Source of the DNA: Escherichia coli
GTDB taxonomy: Bacteria > Pseudomonadota > Gammaproteobacteria > Enterobacterales > Enterobacteriaceae
Reading direction: 5' to 3' (one strand)
Length of the DNA stretch: 64,000 nucleotides
NCBI RefSeq assembly: GCF_013315695.1
Contig: NZ_CP054353.1
Below, in pieces: positions 21,962-49,127 of this stretch. The notes under the pieces are model-generated. The model saw only the letters and a list, made by a program, of their open reading frames with translations. It was not told the origin of the DNA and searched no databases. Within the stretch, counting starts at the first letter, position 1, and every line of letters begins with the position of its first letter. The position numbers and the translations under genes are program-made.

Positions 21962-22016
21962 GGTGATGCTGCCAACTTACTGATTTAGTGTATGATGGTG
22001 TTTTTGAGGTGCTCCA

Positions 22017-22292
22017 GTGGCTTCTGTTTCTATCAGCTGTCCCTCCTGTTCAGCTACTGACGGGGTGGTGCGTAACGGCAAAAGCACCGCCGGACATCAG
22101 CGCTATCTCTGCTCTCACTGCCGTAAAACATGGCAACTGCAGTTCACTTACACCGCTTCTCAACCCGGTACGCACCAGAAAATCATTGATATGGCCATGA
22201 ATGGCGTTGGATGCCGGGCAACAGCCCGCATTATGGGCGTTGGCCTCAACACGATTTTACGTCACTTAAAAAACTCAGGCCGCAGTCGGTAA
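22017..22292 (+). CDS. insA: IS1 InsA (91 aa)
   Basis: GTG start; [43 protein letters not shown]... Confidence 0.95.
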
Positions 22293-22714
22293 CCTCGCGC
22301 ATACAGCCGGGCAGTGACGTCATCGTCTGCGCGGAAATGGACGAACAGTGGGGCTATGTCGGGGCTAAATCGCGCCAGCGCTGGCTGTTTTACGCGTATG
22401 ACAGGCTCCGGAAGACGGTTGTTGCGCACGTATTCGGTGAACGCACTATGGCGACGCTGGGGCGTCTTATGAGCCTGCTGTCACCCTTTGACGTGGTGAT
22501 ATGGATGACGGATGGCTGGCCGCTGTATGAATCCCGCCTGAAGGGAAAGCTGCACGTAATCAGCAAGCGATATACGCAGCGAATTGAGCGGCATAACCTG
22601 AATCTGAGGCAGCACCTGGCACGGCTGGGACGGAAGTCGCTGTCGTTCTCAAAATCGGTGGAGCTGCATGACAAAGTCATCGGGCATTATCTGAACATAA
22701 AACACTATCAATAA
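22211..22714 (+). CDS. insB: IS1 InsB reading frame (167 aa; expressed as InsAB fusion by -1 frameshift)
   Basis: Product ...[50 protein letters not shown]... Confidence 0.9.
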
Positions 22715-22729
22715 GTTGGAGTCATTACC

Positions 22730-36252: not shown

Positions 36253-36307
36253 GGTGATGCTGCCAACTTACTGATTTAGTGTATGATGGTGTTTTTGAGG
36301 TGCTCCA

Positions 36308-36583
36308 GTGGCTTCTGTTTCTATCAGCTGTCCCTCCTGTTCAGCTACTGACGGGGTGGTGCGTAACGGCAAAAGCACCGCCGGACATCAGCGCTATCTC
36401 TGCTCTCACTGCCGTAAAACATGGCAACTGCAGTTCACTTACACCGCTTCTCAACCCGGTACGCACCAGAAAATCATTGATATGGCCATGAATGGCGTTG
36501 GATGCCGGGCAACAGCCCGCATTATGGGCGTTGGCCTCAACACGATTTTACGTCACTTAAAAAACTCAGGCCGCAGTCGGTAA
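36308..36583 (+). CDS. insA: IS1 InsA (91 aa)
   Basis: Translation identical to the 22017-22292 product. Confidence 0.95.
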
Positions 36584-37005
36584 CCTCGCGCATACAGCCG
36601 GGCAGTGACGTCATCGTCTGCGCGGAAATGGACGAACAGTGGGGCTATGTCGGGGCTAAATCGCGCCAGCGCTGGCTGTTTTACGCGTATGACAGGCTCC
36701 GGAAGACGGTTGTTGCGCACGTATTCGGTGAACGCACTATGGCGACGCTGGGGCGTCTTATGAGCCTGCTGTCACCCTTTGACGTGGTGATATGGATGAC
36801 GGATGGCTGGCCGCTGTATGAATCCCGCCTGAAGGGAAAGCTGCACGTAATCAGCAAGCGATATACGCAGCGAATTGAGCGGCATAACCTGAATCTGAGG
36901 CAGCACCTGGCACGGCTGGGACGGAAGTCGCTGTCGTTCTCAAAATCGGTGGAGCTGCATGACAAAGTCATCGGGCATTATCTGAACATAAAACACTATC
37001 AATAA
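36502..37005 (+). CDS. insB: IS1 InsB reading frame (167 aa)
   Basis: Translation identical to the 22211-22714 product. Confidence 0.9.
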
Positions 37006-37020
37006 GTTGGAGTCATTACC

Positions 37021-37029
37021 CTCGCTGAT
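37021..37029. repeat. 9-bp target-site duplication (ctcgctgat), right flank of IS1 copy 2
   Basis: Matches 36244-36252. Confidence 0.9.
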
Positions 37030-37140
37030 ATAGTTTTTATCCAGCAATGATACCATCGAGAAATCGATAGCTTCCTGCCAATCTTTTGCTGAATGTATAA
37101 CTGAGATTGATGATTTTGGAAAATAATCACTAAGCCGCAT

Positions 37141-37517
37141 AAATTATCCTTATTTTATTTTTAGGGTACAGTCCGGCGGTAAAAATAAAATACTCGTGCG
37201 GTTTAATGAAAGCAATTGGGTACGCGAGAAGAAAAACCCCATGAACAAAAATAATAAAACCTTAAATAACAACAACATGAAATTGATATTTTTAAAGTCA
37301 ACTTTGTATTTGTTACGTTTATCACAAAATCAACATTTTGATTGTTGTTGTATTTGTGATGCATATCGCCATTTATTTATTGAATGTCCGAAAACATACT
37401 TTTTTAAAGCAATGTTTTTTCGCTATACCCCTTTATAGATTCTGAATTCTCACCTGTCGGCTGTTTTCTCCTCATCTCATGTGACATATTCCCACACTTT
37501 ACTCAAGGAAGATTGTC
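37141..37517. other. Strongly AT-rich non-coding leader upstream of the SPFH gene
   Basis: Visibly A/T-dominated sequence with runs such as aaaaataaaatac and ataataaaaccttaaataacaacaac; contrasts with flanking core DNA. Confidence 0.6.
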
Positions 37518-38426
37518 ATGAAAGCACCTGTTTCATTAACCTCATTTCGCCCACAAAAATCTCTTGCTATCGCCATTGGCGTGCTTGCCGTGGTTGTGCT
37601 GCCATTTCTCTCGTATTACACCGTTAATGAAGGTGAACGCGGCATTTTGCTGCGCTACGGAAAAATCGTAAAAGTTGCCGAGCCGGGTCTGGGTTTTAAG
37701 ATCCCGTTTATGGAAAGCGTGGAGAAAATTTCCACGCGTAATCAGGCTGTGGTCTATCAGGGATTACAGGCCTACAGCCGCGACCAGCAACCGGCACAAA
37801 TGACAGTATCAGTCAGCTTCCACATTAAACCTTCAGAAGCAGGCGCGGTTTATACCACCTACAACACCATTGAAGCATTAAAAGATCGTCTGATTGTCCG
37901 TCAGTTGCCAACTCAACTGGAGAACGTTTTCGGCCAATATACCGCCATCAGCGCTGTACAGGATCGTACAAAACTGGTTCAGGATCTGCAAAATGCCATG
38001 CGCAAAGCCGTTGTTGGGCCAGTGGTAATTGACGGGGTCCAGATTGAAAATATTGATTTTTCTGACGCTTATGAAAAGTCGATTGAAGACCGAATGAAAG
38101 CAGAAGTCGCCATTGCCACGCGTAAGCAAAATCTGGAAACAGAGAAAATCCAGGCGCAAATAGCGGTAACTCAGGCCCAGGCAGAAGCAGACAGTAAACT
38201 GGCGGCAGCTAAAGCAGAAGCGGAAACTATTCGCGTAAGAGGCGCGGCAGAGGCTGAAACTATTCGTTTAAAAAGTGCGGCTGAAGCAGAAGCGATCCGC
38301 CTGCGCGGTGAAGCTCTGCGGGATAATCCCGGACTTGTAGCCCTCACCACTGCCGAACGTTGGGACGGTAAACTGCCCGATACCATGATCCCCGGCAGCA
38401 CAGTTCCGTTTATCTCTACTAAGTAA
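37518..38426 (+). CDS. SPFH/band-7 (HflC-like) membrane protein with C-terminal Ala/Glu-rich repeat region (302 aa)
   Basis: N-terminal TM helix then YTVNEGERGILLRYGKIVKVAEPGLGFKIPFMESVEKISTRNQ, paralleling the HflC N-terminal SPFH signature. Confidence 0.8.
   Translation: MKAPVSLTSFRPQKSLAIAIGVLAVVVLPFLSYYTVNEGERGILLRYGKIVKVAEPGLGFKIPFMESVEKISTRNQAVVYQGLQAYSRDQQPAQMTVSVSFHIKPSEAGAVYTTYNTIEALKDRLIVRQLPTQLENVFGQYTAISAVQDRTKLVQDLQNAMRKAVVGPVVIDGVQIENIDFSDAYEKSIEDRMKAEVAIATRKQNLETEKIQAQIAVTQAQAEADSKLAAAKAEAETIRVRGAAEAETIRLKSAAEAEAIRLRGEALRDNPGLVALTTAERWDGKLPDTMIPGSTVPFISTK
38214..38312 (+). repeat. Three imperfect tandem 33-nt repeats inside the SPFH gene
   Basis: Units encode AEAETIRVRGA / AEAETIRLKSA / AEAEAIRLRGE. 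Confidence 0.7.
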
Positions 38427-38451
38427 AAAAAGGGCCGCTTTCGCGGCCCTT
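38424..38451 (-). terminator. Intrinsic terminator of tktA (hairpin shared with the 3-prime end of the SPFH gene)
   Basis: Hairpin agggccgctttcgcggccct with A7 on plus strand (U7 after hairpin on tktA transcript). Confidence 0.6.
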
Positions 38452-38471
38452 CTCACAAAGCATCTTACCGA

Positions 38472-40463
38472 TTACAGCAGTTCTTTTGCTTTCGCAACAA
38501 CGTTGTCAACGGTGAAGCCGAACTCTTCAAACAGCAGCTCTGCCGGAGCAGATTCACCGAAGGTGGTCATGCCGACGATAGCACCGTTCAGGCCAACATA
38601 CTTGTACCAGTAGTCAGCAATACCCGCTTCTACCGCAACGCGTGCAGTAACCGCTTTCGGCAGGACGGATTCACGGTAAGCCGCATCCTGCTTGTCGAAT
38701 GCATCGGTAGACGGCATGGAAACCACGCGCGCCTTCACGCCTTCGGCAGTCAGTTTTTCGTAGGCAGCAACCGCCAGTTCAACTTCCGAACCGGTCGCGA
38801 TGAAGATCAGTTCCGGCTGACCGGCACAGTCTTTCAGCACATAACCACCGCGCGCGATGTTTGCCAGCTGCTCTTCAGTACGCTCCTGCTGCGCCAGGTT
38901 CTGACGGGAGAGGATAAGCGCAGTCGGGCCGTCCTGACGCTCAACACCGTATTTCCATGCCACTGCAGATTCAACCTGGTCACATGGACGCCATGTAGAC
39001 ATGTTCGGGGTCACGCGCAGAGAAGCAACCTGCTCTACCGGCTGGTGAGTCGGGCCATCTTCGCCCAGACCGATGGAGTCATGGGTGTAAACCATAACCT
39101 GACGCTGTTTCATCAGCGCAGCCATACGTACGGCGTTACGTGCGTATTCCACGAACATCAGGAAGGTGGAGGTGTACGGCAGGAAACCACCGTGCAAGGA
39201 GATACCGTTAGCAATCGCGGTCATACCGAACTCGCGAACACCGTAGTGGATGTAGTTACCCGCAGCATCTTCGTTGATTGCTTTAGAACCAGACCACAGG
39301 GTCAGGTTAGACGGTGCCAGGTCAGCAGAGCCGCCGAGGAATTCCGGCAACAGCGGGCCGAACGCTTCAATCGCATTCTGAGACGCTTTACGGCTGGCGA
39401 TTTTCGCCGGGTTAGCCTGCAGTTTAGCGATGAACTCTTTCGCTTTGGCGTCGAAGTCAGACGGCATTTCGCCTTTCATACGGCGGGTAAATTCAGCGGC
39501 TTCCTGCGGATAAGCTTTCGCGTAAGCAGCGAATTTCTCGTTCCATGCGGATTCTTTCGCCTGGCCTGCTTCTTTCGCATCCCACTGAGCATAGATTTCA
39601 GACGGGATTTCGAACGGTGCATATTTCCAGCCCAGCTGTTCGCGGGTCAGGGCAATTTCAGCGTCGCCCAGCGGCGCACCGTGGGAGTCGTGCGTACCGG
39701 CTTTGTTCGGGGAACCGAAACCGATGATGGTTTTGCACATCAGCAGGGACGGTTTGTCGGTCACTGCGCGCGCTTCTTCTACTGCGCGTTTGATGGATGC
39801 TGCGTCATGACCGTCGATGCCGCGAATAACGTGCCAGCCGTAAGCTTCGAAACGCATTGCGGTGTCGTCGGTGAACCAGCCTTCAACGTGACCATCGATA
39901 GAGATACCGTTGTCATCGTAGAACGCAATCAGTTTACCCAGCTTCAGCGTACCCGCCAGAGAACAAACTTCGTGGGAGATGCCTTCCATCATGCAGCCGT
40001 CGCCCATGAAGGCGTAGGTGTAGTGGTCGACGATGTCGTGGCCCGGACGGTTAAACTGCGCCGCCAGCGTTTTTTCTGCAATCGCCATACCGACTGCGTT
40101 GGCAATACCCTGACCCAGCGGACCTGTAGTGGTTTCCACGCCAGCGGTGTAACCCACTTCCGGGTGGCCCGGAGTTTTAGAGTGCAGCTGACGGAAGTTT
40201 TTCAGTTCTTCCATCGGCAGATCGTAACCGGTGAGGTGCAGCAGGCTGTAGATCAGCATGGAGCCGTGGCCGTTGGACAGCACGAAGCGGTCACGGTCAG
40301 CCCAGGACGGATTCTGCGGGTTGTGTTTCAGGAAATCACGCCACAGGACTTCGGCAATGTCAGCCATACCCATAGGGGCACCCGGGTGACCGGATTTGGC
40401 TTTCTGTACTGCGTCCATGCTCAGCGCACGAATAGCATTGGCAAGCTCTTTACGTGAGGACAT
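38472..40463 (-). CDS. tktA: Transketolase 1 (663 aa)
   Basis: Internal start [41 protein letters not shown]... Confidence 0.97.
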
Positions 40464-41498: not shown

Positions 41499-41507
41499 GT
41501 CAGACAT

Positions 41508-41536
41508 ACCGATCTACAACATAATTGTAGGTCGGT
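41508..41536. terminator. Hairpin between convergent loiP and the aldolase gene (possible bidirectional terminator, no clear U-tract)
   Basis: Inverted repeat accgatctacaa cataa ttgtaggtcggt. Confidence 0.3.
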
Positions 41537-41553
41537 AACGCCTGAATCCCCGA

Positions 41554-42306
41554 TCAGAGTAGTGATTTCACTTTATTTAGCAAAACGGCTACATCATCCG
41601 GTCGGGTATATCCCGTATCAGGGTCTATAATCGAGCTGTAAACATGTGGCATAATGCGCGGCACCCCCGCCTCCAGACAAGTTTTCAGAATCACACTGAA
41701 GTTATCCAAATCAATCCCGCCAGTCGGCTCAATCAGCGTCATACCATTGCGCGCCGCCGTGGTCGCCAGCGCGTATAGCTCCGGAAGCGACCTCTCGCCG
41801 CCCATCGGAAAGAACTTCGCCGCGTGTGCGCCCATATCTAGCATCATTCGCACCGCCGTATCGCAGGAGACGCGGGCTGGCGTACCCTGGCTGCTGCTAA
41901 CGCCGGTGGAAATCAGCACTTCGCCCGGCGTCCCCGTCGGGCTAACCAGCGCGTTGACATGGGTCTGCTCACCGCCCGTAGCCGCAAGCGCGCCTGCCGC
42001 GAACCCACAACCGGTAAAGGTCTGGTTAACGTGTGCTGGATGAATCTGCGCCGCAATCATCGCAGCTTTGTAATACTGCGCCGGGTCACCCGCCCCCAGA
42101 CCTACTGAAATGGACGGTATTTCCGCCATCCAACGTTTAACTTCCTGGATCCCCTCATCCACCGAGGAGAACTGCGCGGAAAGCACGCCAATCACTGCGT
42201 GGCCTTCGGCGGCGTCAAAGATTTCACGGGCATTGGCGATATCTTTCGCCAGCACATTAATTGCCACACGATTACGATAGAAATTAATCTTTTGCATGAT
42301 CTGCAA
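41554..42306 (-). CDS. KDPG-aldolase-family protein, DgaF-like (250 aa)
   Basis: Eda-like active-site context GAHAAKFFPMGG; last gene of the PTS operon. Confidence 0.75.
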   Translation of the reverse strand: MQIMQKINFYRNRVAINVLAKDIANAREIFDAAEGHAVIGVLSAQFSSVDEGIQEVKRWMAEIPSISVGLGAGDPAQYYKAAMIAAQIHPAHVNQTFTGCGFAAGALAATGGEQTHVNALVSPTGTPGEVLISTGVSSSQGTPARVSCDTAVRMMLDMGAHAAKFFPMGGERSLPELYALATTAARNGMTLIEPTGGIDLDNFSVILKTCLEAGVPRIMPHVYSSIIDPDTGYTRPDDVAVLLNKVKSLL

Positions 42307-43393
42307 TCTCCTTCAGTCGCGCCACGATAAGTGCCATTTCCCCTTCCGCCACCGTACGCGGATCAAGGCTAAAAACGCCCTGGTGGAGGTTATACCGCCG
42401 TGCATAAATCGCGATATCGCCACCACGCAGTTGCGCTTCGACGACGCGAGCGTCAACTCCCAATTCCTGCGCATTTACTCGAATACGAATACGCCAGATT
42501 GCACGCCCGGCTTCATCCTGCTCAATATCAGCCGTTAACCCGTGAATCGCAGAAATCGCTTCAACCACTGGCTGGAGCTGTTCCGCGGTGATGACTGCCT
42601 GCCCCTGGTGATAATTCTCCAGCGCGTAAACCAGCCCAACCATGTTCTCCTTGCCGATTTTCATCGCCTTGGCAATGCCGTGATGCTGCGCTTTGCAGGC
42701 TGCAATCCAGATTTTTTTACCAGTGATAAACCCGGAGGTCGGCGCGTTAAAGGCTTTTGCGCCGCTGTAGACCACCATATCCGCTCCACTCACCACCCAG
42801 GCACGTAAATCCTCTTCGGCGGCGGCATCGACAATCAGCGGCAGGTTGTACATCTGCGCGACATGTGCGAAGTCCTCGATGTTCAACATTCCCTTCTGCA
42901 CGCAGTGATGCGACTTCACATACAGCAGCGCGGCGGTCGCGTCGGTAATGGCACTCTCCAGCTGCCAGAGAGCCGCCAGGTTACTTGAACCCACCTCCAC
43001 AACGCGCCCGCCACCTAAGCGGATCGCGCTGAGGATCGATGCGCCGTAATCGACGTTATGGCCGCGCAGCATCACCACTTCATTGGCCATGCCGGAGCTA
43101 TCCGGCATGAGCGCCACCCGGGCCTTGTCGCCGCGGGTAATGGCGGCGGCGACAGCGATGGCGATCCCTGCTGAGGCACAGGAGGTAACGTAGCTATCCT
43201 CCGCCCCGGTAAAGCGAGAGACCAGCTCGCCGGTTTTGTCCACCAGCTGGTCAATCTCCACGAAAGAGGATGCCGCGCGCGCGGTGGCCTGCATCACCTC
43301 CAGCGCGACGCTGGAGACGCCGAGAATCGTCATCTTGCCGCAGGCGTTAATCACCTGTTTCAGTCCCAGTTGTTGATAGATATTCTGCGTCAT
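42284..43393 (-). CDS. SelA-like PLP-dependent enzyme, DgaE-like (369 aa)
   Basis: Product MTQNIYQQLGLKQVINACGKMTILGVSSVALEVMQA... resembles the SelA/DgaE fold family. Confidence 0.75.
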   Translation of the reverse strand: MTQNIYQQLGLKQVINACGKMTILGVSSVALEVMQATARAASSFVEIDQLVDKTGELVSRFTGAEDSYVTSCASAGIAIAVAAAITRGDKARVALMPDSSGMANEVVMLRGHNVDYGASILSAIRLGGGRVVEVGSSNLAALWQLESAITDATAALLYVKSHHCVQKGMLNIEDFAHVAQMYNLPLIVDAAAEEDLRAWVVSGADMVVYSGAKAFNAPTSGFITGKKIWIAACKAQHHGIAKAMKIGKENMVGLVYALENYHQGQAVITAEQLQPVVEAISAIHGLTADIEQDEAGRAIWRIRIRVNAQELGVDARVVEAQLRGGDIAIYARRYNLHQGVFSLDPRTVAEGEMALIVARLKEIADHAKD

Positions 43394-43396
43394 GGC

Positions 43397-44254
43397 TTAC
43401 AGCACTCCCAGCAGCGAGCAGACCACGCTCAACGCCACAATCGACAGCAGAATCGTGGTGTAACGCGGACCCTTTTTCACCAAATAGAAGTAGATGGCGA
43501 ACACTGCCGCCAGCGGCAGCAGGCCGGGCGCGATGGAGTCCAGAATCTGCTGTACCACCACTTCAGAGCCTTTCAGTGCGCTAATTTTTAAAGGTGAGGT
43601 TATCTTGACAAAGCTCGCGGATAGCGCGCCCATCATGATAAGCCCCAGTACATTAGCGCCGTAGATAAGCTCCTTGATGCGCCCCCCCTGCAGCAGGCTG
43701 ATAATCGAATCGCGCCCCAGCGTATAGCCCTTGTGCACCATGCCGTAGCTGATTGCCAGCGTAATCGCCGGGTAGAGAATCAGCGGCAAAATACCGCCCA
43801 TCGCGCTGCCATTGGCGGCGAACGGGATAAAAATAGCAATCAACAGCGGCATCACGGCCGCCCAGATGATGGAGTCGCCCATTCCGGCCAGCGGCCCCAT
43901 CAGGCCGGTTTTAATCCCGGTGATAGAGGCATCGTTAATCGCCTCGCCGCGGGTCTTTTGCTCTTCCATGGCGATGGAGATCCCTTGGATCACCGCGCCA
44001 AACGTCTGCTCTGAGTTGAAGAAGTTCAGATGGCGTTTTAACGCCTCCACCTGCTCCTCCTTTTGCGGATAGAGCTTTTTAATAATCGGCGTCATCGAGG
44101 CGCAGAAAATCAGGCTCTGTAAACGCTCATATGAGCTGGAAACTTCCGCGCCAAGCCAGTAGATAAACCACGCTTTGGTGATATCCGCTTTGGTCAGCGC
44201 CCCGGACTCCCGCGCGCGCTCCACCAGTTCATGCTGCATTACGTCGCCGCTCAT
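43397..44254 (-). CDS. PTS mannose-family EIID component (285 aa)
   Basis: Membrane protein typical of ManZ-type IID. Confidence 0.85.
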   Translation of the reverse strand: MSGDVMQHELVERARESGALTKADITKAWFIYWLGAEVSSSYERLQSLIFCASMTPIIKKLYPQKEEQVEALKRHLNFFNSEQTFGAVIQGISIAMEEQKTRGEAINDASITGIKTGLMGPLAGMGDSIIWAAVMPLLIAIFIPFAANGSAMGGILPLILYPAITLAISYGMVHKGYTLGRDSIISLLQGGRIKELIYGANVLGLIMMGALSASFVKITSPLKISALKGSEVVVQQILDSIAPGLLPLAAVFAIYFYLVKKGPRYTTILLSIVALSVVCSLLGVL

Positions 44255-45003
44255 TATGCCGCTCCTTCATTTTTCGCCAGGCCTTTAATCAGGAAGGCCA
44301 CGCAGGTGCCGAAAATCGCCATCGCCATGATGTCCACCTTGAGGTACAGCACCGCGAAGAATCCGCCGATAAACCACGGCAGTAGGCTCTTTTTACCAAT
44401 CACCATAATGGTGATGGCGAAGCCCAGCGCCGGGAGAATCCCGCCCATGATTTCAAACGAGTGGGTCAGCCAGTGCGGCATCAGCTTGAGGAAACTTTCC
44501 ACTACGTTCTGGCCGAAGTAGTTGGCGGCGAACACCACTGGGAAACGTAGCACCAGCCCCAGCAGCGCCGGGTAGAGAAAGGCGCAGCGCATAATGGCTG
44601 ATATATTGGCCGTTTCCGCGTGTTTATCGGCCATATGCACCCAGGCCGCATTTAGCGTGCGACGCAACTGGTCGAGGAATACGCCGATAACGCCAAATGG
44701 AATCGCCAGTGCAATCGCCAGGTTCGGGTCCATATTGGCCTTAACGGCGATAGGAATGGCGATACAGGCCGCCAGCGCCGGGTCTGACGGCACATTGCCG
44801 CCTGGCGTTGAGGTCACACCCAGATATACCAACTGCATCCCCGCGCCGATAATCATCGCCGCAGGCATGTTGCCGAGCAGCAGGCCGACAAAGACTGCCA
44901 CCACCACTGGCTGTAACAGCATGGCGGAGAAGGTATAGCCAAGGCGCAACCGGGCAAACCAGTAATACAGCCCCATCAGGCTTGCAAAAAGTAAGGTATC
45001 CAT
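44254..45003 (-). CDS. PTS mannose-family EIIC component (249 aa)
   Basis: Polytopic membrane protein MDTLLFASLMGLYYWFARLRLGYTF... Confidence 0.85.
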   Translation of the reverse strand: MDTLLFASLMGLYYWFARLRLGYTFSAMLLQPVVVAVFVGLLLGNMPAAMIIGAGMQLVYLGVTSTPGGNVPSDPALAACIAIPIAVKANMDPNLAIALAIPFGVIGVFLDQLRRTLNAAWVHMADKHAETANISAIMRCAFLYPALLGLVLRFPVVFAANYFGQNVVESFLKLMPHWLTHSFEIMGGILPALGFAITIMVIGKKSLLPWFIGGFFAVLYLKVDIMAMAIFGTCVAFLIKGLAKNEGAA

Positions 45004-45028
45004 AATTTGTTATCCCATGTTCAGAGGG

Positions 45029-45514
45029 TCAGAATTTTTTCAGGATATCGTCCAGCGACTGCGGCTTATCTTCCGGGATGGTCTGGAAAACAGCCTTAAT
45101 GCCGCGACTTTTCAAATCGTTAAGAATGCCAACGTCTTTTTCATCCAGAGTTATGTTCTGGAACACCGCTTTACGGTTTGGCCCGCCGCCTAAGCCGCCA
45201 ACCTGAATATCAGCCACGTCAAAGCCCTGCTGCACCGCTTCCTGAATCGCCGCCAGCGACGGGAACAGCACCAGCACGTTGCCGTCGCCCAGCTGGTTCT
45301 CTTTCCACGCGGCCGCGAAGCTCTGGTTGCTGAAGCAGTCCACTTTGATATTCGGCGGCGCGGCCATCAGGTAGATATTTTTCATAAACGGATCGGCGTC
45401 CAGCTCGTCGCTGACCACCGCAATACGGTTGGCCTGGGATTGCCCCACCCACTTCGTCACCACCTGTCCGTGGATAAGACGGCTGTCAATGCGACATAAC
45501 ACGATGTTTGCCAT
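45029..45514 (-). CDS. PTS mannose-family EIIB component (161 aa)
   Basis: MANIVLCRIDSRLIHGQVVTKWVG..., the ManX IIB-domain signature with phosphorylatable His. Confidence 0.85.
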   Translation of the reverse strand: MANIVLCRIDSRLIHGQVVTKWVGQSQANRIAVVSDELDADPFMKNIYLMAAPPNIKVDCFSNQSFAAAWKENQLGDGNVLVLFPSLAAIQEAVQQGFDVADIQVGGLGGGPNRKAVFQNITLDEKDVGILNDLKSRGIKAVFQTIPEDKPQSLDDILKKF

Positions 45515-45524
45515 ACGATTTTCC

Positions 45525-45953
45525 TTACTGTTGTAATTGACGAATATGGGAGACGACGTCCAGGCAACTGTTGCGCCCAGCTTCCACCAGATCGGCCACG
45601 CAGGCGGTCAGTGGGCCATGTTCGCGCTTGTCCAGCGCCTCCAGCAGCAGCGAGGCATTAAGCCCGGAGATCACCGCCACCGGATAATCGGCGCTCAGCC
45701 GCGCCGCCACGTTAGAGGTGGTGCCGCCGATAAAATCGGTCACGATAAGAGAACCTTCTGGCATGGTTTTCACCACGGCTTCGACGCGCTGGTAAAACTC
45801 GCCCAGCGTATCGACAGGCATCAGCGCGATTTCCGTCACGCCTTCGATTTCGCCCATCACCATGCGCAGACTGTTGCAGAGCTGCAGCCCCCAGCCGCCG
45901 TGAGTTAGCAGCAGAATTTCAGGTAACGGATGAATAGGTACAGTTGTGGTCAA
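45525..45953 (-). CDS. PTS mannose-family EIIA component (142 aa), TTG start
   Basis: Product MTTTVPIHPLPEILLLTHGGWG...; RBS aaggagg 5 nt upstream of TTG. Confidence 0.8.
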   Translation of the reverse strand: MTTTVPIHPLPEILLLTHGGWGLQLCNSLRMVMGEIEGVTEIALMPVDTLGEFYQRVEAVVKTMPEGSLIVTDFIGGTTSNVAARLSADYPVAVISGLNASLLLEALDKREHGPLTACVADLVEAGRNSCLDVVSHIRQLQQ

Positions 45954-45992
45954 AATAGCCTCCTTTGCTCCAGTGTTTACATTTCATCAGGA

Positions 45993-46007
45993 GCAAAGGA
46001 CGTGCCA
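45993..46007 (-). promoter_or_regulatory. Sigma-54 (RpoN) -24/-12 promoter driving the PTS operon
   Basis: Minus strand reads TGGCAC-GTCCT-TTGC (perfect GG-N10-GC spacing) about 40 bp upstream of the EIIA start, downstream of the sigma-54 activator gene. Confidence 0.7.
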
Positions 46008-46071
46008 GAATTTGTGTCACGCACAGAGGAAATGAGATTGGATGGGGCGTTAAGCCCCGTAAACCAGGGGA

Positions 46072-48870
46072 TCAGCTGTAGAGCAGTTCGTAGATATAAA
46101 AATATTCTGCGTCCGATAAACGGATAGCGTAAGCCTCTTCAATCGGCAAAAAGGAGGATTTGATGACGCTAAAGGCACGAGCGTCCAGATCAAGCCGGTT
46201 TTCTAGCGCCATCTGTAACGGTTTGCGGTTAATCACGATACGCTCGACCATGCAGCAGCAGTGGATCAGAAAACGTAGTGTCACCTGGCGGCTCGGTTTC
46301 AGGGAGAGCGTGTTGGTTAAGTGGTTCAGAACGTCCTCGATCTCTTTCAGAATTCGCTGCGGGTTGAGCACCGAAATATGGTTGATGATGCTCTCCATGG
46401 TCAGCGCGCTGATAAAACGCATGGCGCTGCGCTCCATCTCCAGTCGGCGCTCGCTGCTTGAGAGATCCGGCGTCAGCAGGCTGAGCACCAGCTCTGGCCC
46501 TTGCTCGGAAAACAGTTCCTCCAGCGAGATAAACGGTATATCCGGCAGTCCCGGCTGGAAGGTGCCGACGATCCCTGCCAGCCGTTCACTGGCATTAAGC
46601 GCCTGCTGAATACGCTCCAGGCTGCGCACCTCGTTATAGTCGAGAATCACCATACGCGTGTCCTGCGACATCAGCTCGCCAAAGCTCTCCTCCAGCACCT
46701 TTTTGATCTTTTCCGCCGTCCCCATTCCGGTTATACATGAGATAACCAGCACTTTGCCACCGCTCTCTTGCTGCGGCGTGCAGAGCCGACAAGGGATATT
46801 TTTACTCTGCATAAGCACAGCCAATTGCGATAGATCGCCAGTTTCGTAGCTTAAATCCAGCCCCACCTCCAGCAGGCTGGTCAGAGTGATATTTGGCAAC
46901 AACAGAACGTCAATCTGGAACAGCTTGCTGATGGTGCTGCCAAAATGGACCAGCGATCCGATATCCACCATCAGTATCAGCCGCTGCCAGCACCGGTCCT
47001 GAATCATCCGGGTCAGGGTTTCCAGGGTGTCATGCACCGACTGCTCAAATGGCATATCAATTGCGTAGAACAGATCGCGCTCCAGCACCCGATTCACATA
47101 TTGCGCCTGGCTCGTTGCGGTGGTCGCACCGTGAGCGATTAGAATCACGCCGCAATCCGGGCTGGTGTCGATGCGCTGGCGGTAGTGGCGACACTCTTTC
47201 AGGAACAGGCACAGCCAGACCACCTCCGTCGCCGGGCACTGAATATGCAACAACTCATTGATTTTGCGGCACAGAAGTGTCGCATTGTCATACTCATCTT
47301 TACAGCGATCCAGAATCAGGCTGGATGAATAGAGTTGAGGTATAAGCCCTCGCCGCACATAGCCAATCAGCGCAAGAAAGTGTTTACGTAACGGGTTCGC
47401 CAGGTTTTCTGGCAATGTAAATCCTAATACCTGCTCCACGTAACCGATCAGCAGCGTCACACGCTCCTCAATTTGATCGCCATAGCGCGGTGGATGCGCC
47501 GCACTATGGCGGCTATAAAGACCATATTCAAAAATCGAACTGAGTTTGTTTTTCAGGATAGCCAGCGTTTCTGCGGGCGGCACGTTACTGTTGCGCAGAT
47601 TGACATATTCACGAGTCAGGAAACTGTAAAACAGGTCGCTCTCTTCTATTTCCGCGCTGGTCGCCAACGAATTTTTTAACGCGGGCAACGTACGCGCATC
47701 CACGTTCAGACGATCTTTACCACCAAACAACGCATCGACCAGCAGACGCTGCTCTGGCGTGGTATTAAACGACATCTCCGCCAGTCGTTTATCTAACTCT
47801 AGCGTATCATTACGCTCGGTCATTCCCGACGCCCACGCCTGCGCGCACAAGAACTGAATATCACTTTTAAGCTGGCCGATATTGCCTTCCAGGGATTTAC
47901 TTAACAACCAATGCAAGAGCGTTTTATCAAGGCTTATGGTACGTTCAATTTTACGACTTTCACGCTGAAAGAAGCTTACAATCAATTCGAGCTGCTCCTC
48001 GACCGAACGCTGGCGAATACCCGGTAAGTCAATACATACCTGGATACGCCGCTGGAAGGTACGCAATAGTGCCGAGTTGACCGACTCTGTAGTGGCGCAA
48101 ATAAGGCGCACCGAAATTGAATATGTTGGCCCACTTGAACCAAGTGGGCGGTATTCACCTTTATCGAGAATAGAAAAGAGCTTCTCTTGTCCTTCGTACG
48201 GGAGGCGATGCACTTCATCCAGAAGTAAATAGCCTCCGTCAGCTTGCTCCACCAATCCCGTTTTATTCTCACTTGCCCCGGTAAATGCCCCCTTATGGTG
48301 ACCAAACAGATGTGAGGAAAGCAACTCCGGATTATGAGCATATTCGGCACAGTTAAAGTAAACCAACGGAGGTAGCGAACCTATGGTGTGCTTGCAAGCG
48401 AAGCAATGCATTAACTCAGCAAAGAATGTTTTGCCAACACCAGATGCCCCGGTTAACAGCACATGTAGTCCGTGGGGATAGAGCACCGCTGCGCGGCCTT
48501 TTTCTACCGCATCACGGAGACTACGGTCGTATCCGATAAGTCCGGAAAACGGATCATCATCTGTATATTTTTCTTTCTTTGGCAATAAACTAGCCACTGA
48601 ATGAACTATGCATTCGCAATCATCCAGTTTTCGATTAATGAGCAATTCTAGTGCGTGACGATGTAGAAAAAAAACAGGACGTCCCTGACTTTTTACCACC
48701 AGGCCTTCATTCCATAATTGATTAAGATCTTTACTAACCGAGTTGCGTGCCAGCCCAAGGTTAAAACCAATCGCCTCAGCAGTAAATGCTTTCTCCTTCG
48801 CTAAATCAGACAGTTCCAGCCCATACGTCAGCCGCTCCAGCTCCTTGTGAATAACATCAATCCGTCTCAT
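46072..48870 (-). CDS. Sigma-54-dependent LevR/DgaR-like activator with AAA+ and PRD/EIIA-type regulatory domains (about 932 aa)
   Basis: Walker A GASGVGKT, GAFTGA motif (HHKGAFTGAS); first ATG (MRRIDVIHKE...) chosen, GTG 14 codons upstream also possible. Confidence 0.85.
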   Translation of the reverse strand: MRRIDVIHKELERLTYGLELSDLAKEKAFTAEAIGFNLGLARNSVSKDLNQLWNEGLVVKSQGRPVFFLHRHALELLINRKLDDCECIVHSVASLLPKKEKYTDDDPFSGLIGYDRSLRDAVEKGRAAVLYPHGLHVLLTGASGVGKTFFAELMHCFACKHTIGSLPPLVYFNCAEYAHNPELLSSHLFGHHKGAFTGASENKTGLVEQADGGYLLLDEVHRLPYEGQEKLFSILDKGEYRPLGSSGPTYSISVRLICATTESVNSALLRTFQRRIQVCIDLPGIRQRSVEEQLELIVSFFQRESRKIERTISLDKTLLHWLLSKSLEGNIGQLKSDIQFLCAQAWASGMTERNDTLELDKRLAEMSFNTTPEQRLLVDALFGGKDRLNVDARTLPALKNSLATSAEIEESDLFYSFLTREYVNLRNSNVPPAETLAILKNKLSSIFEYGLYSRHSAAHPPRYGDQIEERVTLLIGYVEQVLGFTLPENLANPLRKHFLALIGYVRRGLIPQLYSSSLILDRCKDEYDNATLLCRKINELLHIQCPATEVVWLCLFLKECRHYRQRIDTSPDCGVILIAHGATTATSQAQYVNRVLERDLFYAIDMPFEQSVHDTLETLTRMIQDRCWQRLILMVDIGSLVHFGSTISKLFQIDVLLLPNITLTSLLEVGLDLSYETGDLSQLAVLMQSKNIPCRLCTPQQESGGKVLVISCITGMGTAEKIKKVLEESFGELMSQDTRMVILDYNEVRSLERIQQALNASERLAGIVGTFQPGLPDIPFISLEELFSEQGPELVLSLLTPDLSSSERRLEMERSAMRFISALTMESIINHISVLNPQRILKEIEDVLNHLTNTLSLKPSRQVTLRFLIHCCCMVERIVINRKPLQMALENRLDLDARAFSVIKSSFLPIEEAYAIRLSDAEYFYIYELLYS

Positions 48871-49087
48871 TTCTTTACCGCTTAAAAAACAATAGTTGTT
48901 CAGAACATACACTATTTGTAAACGTAAGAATGAGAACTACCGGGAAGAATTAATGTTCCTTGTGGCAATCTGGTTTCTGAATATTCGTGTTTTAAATATT
49001 ACTTATGGTCTGAAACAACCAGGCAGGTGAACAGAGCTAAGAAAAAGTCGCGTAGAAATATAAAAACATATATCGCACTGATGAATG

Positions 49088-49116
49088 TTTCCCGGCATGA
49101 CATACACACCGGGAAA
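49088..49116 (-). terminator. Hairpin downstream of speB (possible terminator, weak U-tract)
   Basis: tttcccgg catgacatacaca ccgggaaa inverted repeat just past speB stop. Confidence 0.3.
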
Positions 49117-49127
49117 TATTTAGTAAA

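Follow-up and report, generated by a model that had tools for sequence, protein, structure and literature searches.

An in-frame tandem array of 33-nt units within an SPFH protein gene of Escherichia coli raises the question of whether such a segment constitutes a coiled coil of variable length that differs from strain to strain, as an initial annotation suggested, or a structural module of the encoded protein. The window, i.e., the whole stretch of 64,000 nucleotides of E. coli DNA that was analyzed (RefSeq assembly GCF_013315695.1, contig NZ_CP054353.1), places the array in a 909-nt ORF on the plus strand, with the RefSeq product name 'prohibitin family protein' (WP_000646940-type) and with cmtB on one side and tkt on the other (RefSeq; Table 1). 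The gene is accessory, with 1830 carriers among 5426 complete E. coli genomes. The protein matches the Pfam profile PF01145 (Band_7/SPFH) over residues 35-210 with 111.6 bits, versus a cut-off of 23.6 (E = 5.6e-32). Because its scores fall well under the NCBIfam cut-offs for (i) HflC (TIGR01932, 60.5 bits versus 134.4), (ii) HflK (TIGR01933, 37.4 bits versus 159.4), and (iii) FloT (NF058507, 17.4 bits versus 700, a weak alignment confined to residues 191-266), the protein forms a subfamily apart from all three. Identity with the FtsH modulators HflK/HflC was thus rejected, both scores lying under the equivalog cut-offs, as was membership of the flotillins (FloT/FloA), the score lying far under that of NF058507.

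Table 1. Features of the SPFH gene and of the encoded protein; coordinates refer to the window
Feature	Coordinates	Strand	Residues	Basis or remark
SPFH protein gene, 302 aa, membrane-anchored	37518-38426	+		ORF list, Pfam Band_7, RefSeq annotation
N-terminal TM helix	37551-37613	+	12-32	AlphaFold2 helix 12-32; hydrophobic sequence LAIAIGVLAVVVLPFL
SPFH/Band 7 domain	37620-38147	+	35-210	Pfam envelope; overlaps the start of the long helix
Single continuous α-helix, 87 residues (predicted)	38064-38324	+	183-269	AlphaFold2, block pLDDT 88-97
Unit u0 (degenerate), AEADSKLAAAK	38181-38213	+	222-232	A-E-A kept at positions 1-3
Unit u1, AEAETIRVRGA	38214-38246	+	233-243	
Unit u2, AEAETIRLKSA	38247-38279	+	244-254	
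Unit u3, AEAEAIRLRGE	38280-38312	+	255-265	Orthologue of the conserved last unit
Helix break N270-P271, predicted wall/cap bend	38325-38330	+	270-271	Non-helical in the model; 'NP' in the family consensus
Cap helix and extended C-terminal tail (predicted)	38331-38423	+	272-281; 282-302	Helix 272-281 in the model

The Kluyvera orthologue is syntenic, adjoining tkt and a gene of Peptidase_M48, the family of loiP, which is the matching neighbor in E. coli; the locus is therefore ancestral in Enterobacteriaceae. No gene for an NfeD-type, protease, or FtsH-type partner adjoins the SPFH gene, and membership in a defense system was rejected, as no PADLOC match was obtained. The positively charged residues K2, R11, and K14 stand N-terminal of the sole TM helix (window 37518-37620), so that the positive-inside rule predicts a periplasmic location for the bulk of the protein, SPFH domain and helix, as in HflK/C. 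A scan of 37021-38500 for promoter and terminator consensus sequences called nothing. By eye, a hairpin at 38432-38449 (GGGCCGC-TTTC-GCGGCCC; feature 38425-38449, starting inside the SPFH stop codon) resembles an intrinsic terminator serving the convergent tkt gene, with seven A preceding it that read as seven T past the stem on the minus strand. Two minus-strand ORFs, of 76 aa (38171-38401) and 62 aa (38268-38456), run antisense over the array; the former, Ser/Ala-rich ('SASA...'), seems to be no gene but a mirror image of the GCN-GAA codons.

The three tandem in-frame 33-nt repeats at 38214-38312 are confirmed by both Tandem Repeats Finder (period 33, 2.4 copies, 77% matches, 38214-38291) and codon shuffling. 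The lag-33 self-match of 44/66 is reached in (i) none of 5000 codon shuffles of the whole gene, (ii) none of 1000 with lags of 9 to 90 all permitted, and (iii) none of 5000 restricted to the Ala/Glu-rich tail codons; since no shuffle, gene-wide or tail-only, attains this score, the repeat exceeds a compositional effect. The units share 26/33 nt and 8/11 aa (u1-u2), 21/33 nt and 8/11 aa (u1-u3), and 18/33 nt and 7/11 aa (u2-u3), identities which make u3 a clear copy in protein and a weak one in DNA, while the degenerate u0 retains 17/33 nt and 3/11 aa in common with u1. Between u3 and unit two of the Kluyvera orthologue, 28/33 nt agree, and the u3 residues A255, A257, and I260 reach a conservation of at least 90% across 138 homologues.

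As 33 nt comprise 11 codons, the unit is a hendecad, and the description of the repeats as 'AEAETIR-type' holds for the first seven residues only. The full pattern, A-E-A-E-(T/A)-I-R-(V/L)-(R/K)-(G/S)-(A/E), takes up three turns of the helix. Projected on an 11/3 wheel, it shows one stripe of small or apolar residues at positions 1, 5, and 8 (A, T/A, V/L) and, across from it, another at positions 3, 6, and 10 (A, I, G/S), with the intervening faces charged, E2/R9 on one and E4/R7 on the other. The hydropathy of residues 183-269 displays a peak at 2.23 residues with a power of 142, equaled at any period from 2 to 8 in 1 of 1000 shuffles; the power ranges from 114 to 142 at periods 2.23-2.25, and at a fixed period of 2.25 the observed value is attained by none of 5000 shuffles. 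With 3.67-3.6 residues per helical turn, a two-fold pattern has its alias at a period of 2.2-2.25, the values being 2.20 for an 11/3 helix, 2.25 for 3.6 residues per turn, and 2.33 for a heptad. The 2.23 signal hence denotes apolar stripes along opposite sides of a helix with ~3.6-3.67 residues per turn, and for the whole helix 3.6 fits slightly better than 3.67. The two-stripe periodicity was also considered as a signature of the superfamily and rejected: in the wall helices of HflK and HflC from E. coli, hydropathy is without a significant period, and the regular pattern is therefore a property of this subfamily.

Hendecad (11/3) repeats are typical of right-handed or straight α-helical assemblies. 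The present segment resembles them in its 11-residue sequence period, equal to three turns with at least 3.6 residues per turn, in the continuous helix predicted for residues 183-269, and in the 11-residue length steps of the family described below. Unlike hendecad bundles with one core-facing stripe, it carries two opposite apolar stripes, an arrangement suiting two lateral neighbors.

The location of the array in frame within the helical tail of an SPFH protein, as originally annotated, is supported by the Pfam match and by an AlphaFold2 monomer model built from the 138 homologues (mean pLDDT 92.7). The model comprises (i) the N-terminal TM helix, (ii) an SPFH fold of β/α elements at residues 33-181, (iii) the single continuous helix, and (iv) beyond the bend, the cap helix and the C-terminal tail, in which W282 and G284 are invariant alignment columns. 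The array (residues 233-265, or 222-265 with u0) occupies the last third of the long helix, just before N270-P271 in the model. Foldseek matches the full-length model to HflC (7vhq_G, E = 4e-17) as well as to prohibitin (8rrh), erlin (9vvg), stomatin, QmcA (8z5g), flotillin (9bq2), and the major vault protein, with E-values of 1e-17 to 1e-12 for HflC, PHB, erlin, stomatin, and QmcA; the sequence search is concordant, matching HflC, HflK, QmcA, and prohibitin chains. Together with the Pfam score above threshold, the modeled protomer architecture, TM-SPFH-CC1-bend-CC2-C-terminal segment, is that of the SPFH superfamily, whose cage proteins display the same succession of TM helix, SPFH domain, long helix, bend, cap helix, and C-terminal strand. 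The 87-residue helix of the model, here named the wall helix, matches the CC1 'wall' helix of the SPFH cages formed by HflK/C, prohibitin, erlin, and flotillin; unlike these solved cages, the present protein is represented by a monomer model.

The structures of SPFH cages offer a frame in which the two stripes may be placed. In flotillin, helices standing side by side build the wall as a right-handed barrel, with A/G-E-A/G-E patterns, no heptads, and charges both inside and outside; among SPFH families, the wall helix varies from 44 to 189 aa, a length proposed to set the size of the cage (PMC11260169). In erlin and prohibitin, CC1 helices make up a sealed wall (bioRxiv 10.1101/2025.04.21.649849). 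The present helix shares with flotillin the Ala/Glu alternation (A/G-E-A/G-E) and the lack of heptads, and with SPFH cage proteins in general a helix length that varies among family members; unlike E. coli HflK/HflC, it displays an explicit, countable 11-residue repeat and a very regular two-stripe hydropathy. In a side-by-side right-handed barrel, with which the hendecad period is compatible, the two stripes would touch the left and right neighbor helices and the charged faces would point into and out of the cage; the right-handedness of the supercoil is taken from the description of the flotillin barrel.

Comparison between species indicates how the third unit may have arisen. Two units are found in the closest orthologues outside Escherichia, those of Klebsiella, Kluyvera, and Phytobacter (80-88% identity), and also in more distant relatives from Kosakonia, Erwinia, Salmonella, and Pseudomonas, the two-unit species carrying the sequence ...AKAEAETIRLKGAAEAEAIRLRGEAL..., whereas E. 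coli, Shigella flexneri, and E. albertii carry three. Orthologues of invariant length without repeat structure, which the initial annotation had named as its refutation, were thus not what was found: the orthologues are neither, and yet the variation runs between genera and not between E. coli strains. In the MAFFT alignment, the 33-nt gap of Kluyvera opens at position 7 of u1 and closes at position 6 of u2, and one unit's worth of sequence across u1/u2 is extra in Escherichia, with u1 or u2 equally assignable as the added copy. Because close and distant orthologues outside Escherichia have two, two units plus the degenerate u0 represent the ancestral state, the third unit of the Escherichia lineage being a derived tandem duplication of the first. 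The nucleotide identity of u1 and u2 (78.8%) is close to that of the whole E. coli and Kluyvera genes (75.9%); the duplication, which is fixed in Escherichia, is thus old. One E. albertii allele, encoding 280 aa (GCA_001514595.1; Logan run ERR162681), displays an exact 66-nt deletion equal to two units, with breakpoints at the GCAGA(A/G)GC starts of u0 (5') and u2.

Across the family, the length of the wall helix changes almost only by 11-residue steps. Measured in 161 representatives between one anchor where the SPFH domain ends and another in the C-terminal segment, the spacer comprises 43 residues in 19 representatives, 54 in 95, 65 in 24, and 76 in 4, so that 19 of the 161 lie off the 11-step lattice, 13 of them on a lattice shifted by -7 (47/58/69 residues) and 6 at any other length, all counts being inflated by phylogenetic non-independence. 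Internal identity of at least 7/11 is found at lag 11 in 24 of 126 representatives and at lags 7-10, 12, 14, and 18 in none of the 126. The extra units occupy no fewer than three separate places in the alignment, and certain ones, such as that of P0177 at 9/11, are visibly recent. A neighbor-joining tree of the SPFH domain with Fitch reconstruction yields 46 changes, equal to permuted tips, and is uninformative at such divergence.

It is likely that the array represents hendecad structural repeats making up the C-terminal third of CC1, the wall helix of the SPFH protein, with the third unit of Escherichia old and fixed. An insertion of 11 residues would lengthen the wall helix by ~16 Å and keep the helical faces aligned, which would explain why the family changes in steps of 11. 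Unit-to-unit recombination or slippage would supply the 11-residue changes, and selection would remove out-of-phase indels, tolerating those of three turns (11 residues) or two turns (7 residues); indels off the turn would bring the contact stripes and the cap-helix bend out of register.

The same 11-residue quantization could reflect the mutational mechanism only, i.e., 33-nt unequal recombination or slippage with no phase requirement, leaving the extra Escherichia unit neutral. This explanation, which we regard as unlikely, accounts for the E. albertii breakpoints at homologous unit starts and for the neighboring duplicates still visible in several lineages (9/11 in P0177, 8/11 in the query), but small in-frame indels arise easily in any gene, and yet just 6 of the 161 representatives lie outside both lattices. 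Moreover, the 7-residue step, the second commonest, results from a deletion that falls in the repeat-free N-terminal half of the helix (P0186, P0198, P0207, P0213, and others), beyond the reach of a repeat mechanism, and the array is under purifying selection. Because other in-frame indels are rare and the 7-residue class exists, mutation bias alone fits less well than selection for whole turns.

Within E. coli, the anticipated strain-to-strain variation is absent: three units occur in essentially all 1829 complete array-carrying genomes, and surveys with two probes display a fixed length for the segment once proposed as its source. A 127-nt probe comprising the array and 14-nt flanks, scored at 80% coverage or more in one piece, is matched in 1829 of 1829 genomes, all at identities of at least 90%, which excludes loss of a unit. 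This one-piece test is blind to gain, since an inserted unit could still allow alignment over 89% of the probe; a 299-nt probe, the array with 100-nt flanks, was used to test for it and reaches 80% in 1827 of the 1829, excluding gain in those. One of the two exceptions, FDAARGOS_1260, carries a 5' truncation of the SPFH gene beside an IS1 copy. The 41-mer junction expected from unequal crossover between u1 and u2 is found nowhere in complete E. coli genomes, and the weakest probe match (H90) corresponds to a normal SPFH gene of 909 nt.

The array is a poor slippage substrate, because its units have diverged (55-79% DNA identity) and the longest exact repeat inside the gene is 11 nt. The ST131 allele (97.0% nt identity) differs from that of the window by 24 synonymous and 3 non-synonymous codons, of which 5 synonymous and 0 non-synonymous fall inside the array; in E. 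coli, the array is fixed, and purifying selection acts on it. These data bear on a second alternative, by which the array would be a contingency or VNTR-like coiled coil whose strain-variable copy number generates functional or antigenic variation. As in such loci of bacterial surface proteins, the repeat is tandem, in frame, and within a coding region, genera differ in copy number, and rare unit-sized deletions occur, as in the E. albertii allele lacking two units, seen in both the NCBI assembly and the Logan run. A metagenome contig also encodes an E. coli-like protein (P0011) minus one unit, but given its unrelated 6-aa deletion and the Ns in the scaffold it may be an assembly artefact and carries little weight. 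Unlike VNTR loci, whose units are near-identical in DNA and polymorphic in copy number within a species, the array comprises diverged units (26/33, 21/33, and 18/33 nt), shows no copy-number change among the 1829 complete E. coli genomes, the one deletion allele belonging to E. albertii, and has accumulated five substitutions between ST131 and the window that are all synonymous, pointing to purifying rather than diversifying selection; the VNTR explanation is thus very improbable.

A 245-aa 'partial' protein ending inside u2 (P0034) was considered as an IS insertion or expansion and rejected, as the identical allele has a normal array in complete genomes, where it contains no exact repeat longer than 10 nt; its '759 members' count separate fragment sequences and not genomes. 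Contigs stop at gene nt 735/736 (window 38252-38253, in u2), with no foreign sequence beyond, in an NCBI draft genome, in an ENA metagenome, and in two Logan assemblies, an end for which exact-sequence look-up partly selects; GCA_053093305.1 is among the draft genomes with contigs ending there.

The surroundings of the gene display several rearrangements. A complete IS1 of 768 bp (36253-37020) interrupts cmtB, accompanied by a target-site duplication of 9 bp (CTCGCTGAT); the insertion leaves a minus-strand fusion ORF of 66 aa (36940-37140). A second IS1 at 21962-22729 has the same terminal inverted repeats. In FDAARGOS_497, with an otherwise identical SPFH gene, cmtB is intact, and ~7.6 kb between loiP and speB in the window (41500-49127) have no counterpart; at the loiP-speB position, FDAARGOS_1260 carries the D-glucosaminate genes dagF and dgaE. 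In this last genome (NZ_CP069438.1, 3248-4225), IS1A abuts the SPFH gene, the first 684 nt of which are gone together with cmtA and cmtB, a loss suggestive of a deletion associated with IS1; the array is unaffected.

The third alternative, a classical left-handed heptad coiled coil of paired or trimeric intertwined helices with the repeats as heptad units, agrees with a long, unbroken, Ala/Glu/Arg-rich helix in the AlphaFold2 model and with the customary naming of CC1/CC2 in SPFH tails as 'coiled-coil', but is scarcely credible against a repeat unit of 11 residues, hydropathy at background level at 3.5, 3.6, 3.67, and 2.33 residues (residues 183-269; power 3.4 at 3.5 and 4.1 at 7/3, each reached by ~70% of shuffles, versus the peak of 114-142 at 2.23-2.25), the absence of lag-7 internal similarity in 126 homologues, and the side-by-side, heptad-free helices of the flotillin structure (PMC11260169). 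The 'heptad-like' label of the initial annotation is consequently wrong, as is 'heptad coiled coil' for the segment as a whole.

Ala/Glu-patterned, non-heptad SPFH wall helices of variable length are already known, while the array, its explicit hendecad unit, and the length quantization of the subfamily appear to be undescribed: a literature search combining 'hendecad' with the SPFH family names found no paper linking the two in the library covered. Building on the reading of the array as hendecad repeats of the wall helix, a further step, put forward tentatively and as the less probable part of the picture, is that this helix serves as a discrete ruler, by which cage height, and perhaps membrane area or subunit number, would be set in quanta of 11 residues (~16 Å), since both lateral contact stripes would stay in register only when whole turns are inserted. 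The relation of wall length to cage size was raised, though not tested, in the paper on the flotillin structure (PMC11260169), and the natural variants of one, two, three, and four units are ready material on wall-helix length versus cage height or stoichiometry. If the ruler holds true, the Escherichia lineage would have fixed a taller cage than its relatives in Enterobacteriaceae.

For E. coli, the feature is an ordinary one, a length-quantized structural repeat rather than a strain-variable locus, and the array drops out as a candidate for strain or phase variation. The protein that carries it represents an uncharacterized fifth SPFH protein, present in about one-third of complete E. coli genomes. 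For the biology of the SPFH family, it offers a testable rule, in which the wall helix of this subfamily is made of countable 11-residue modules and evolves in length by whole turns.
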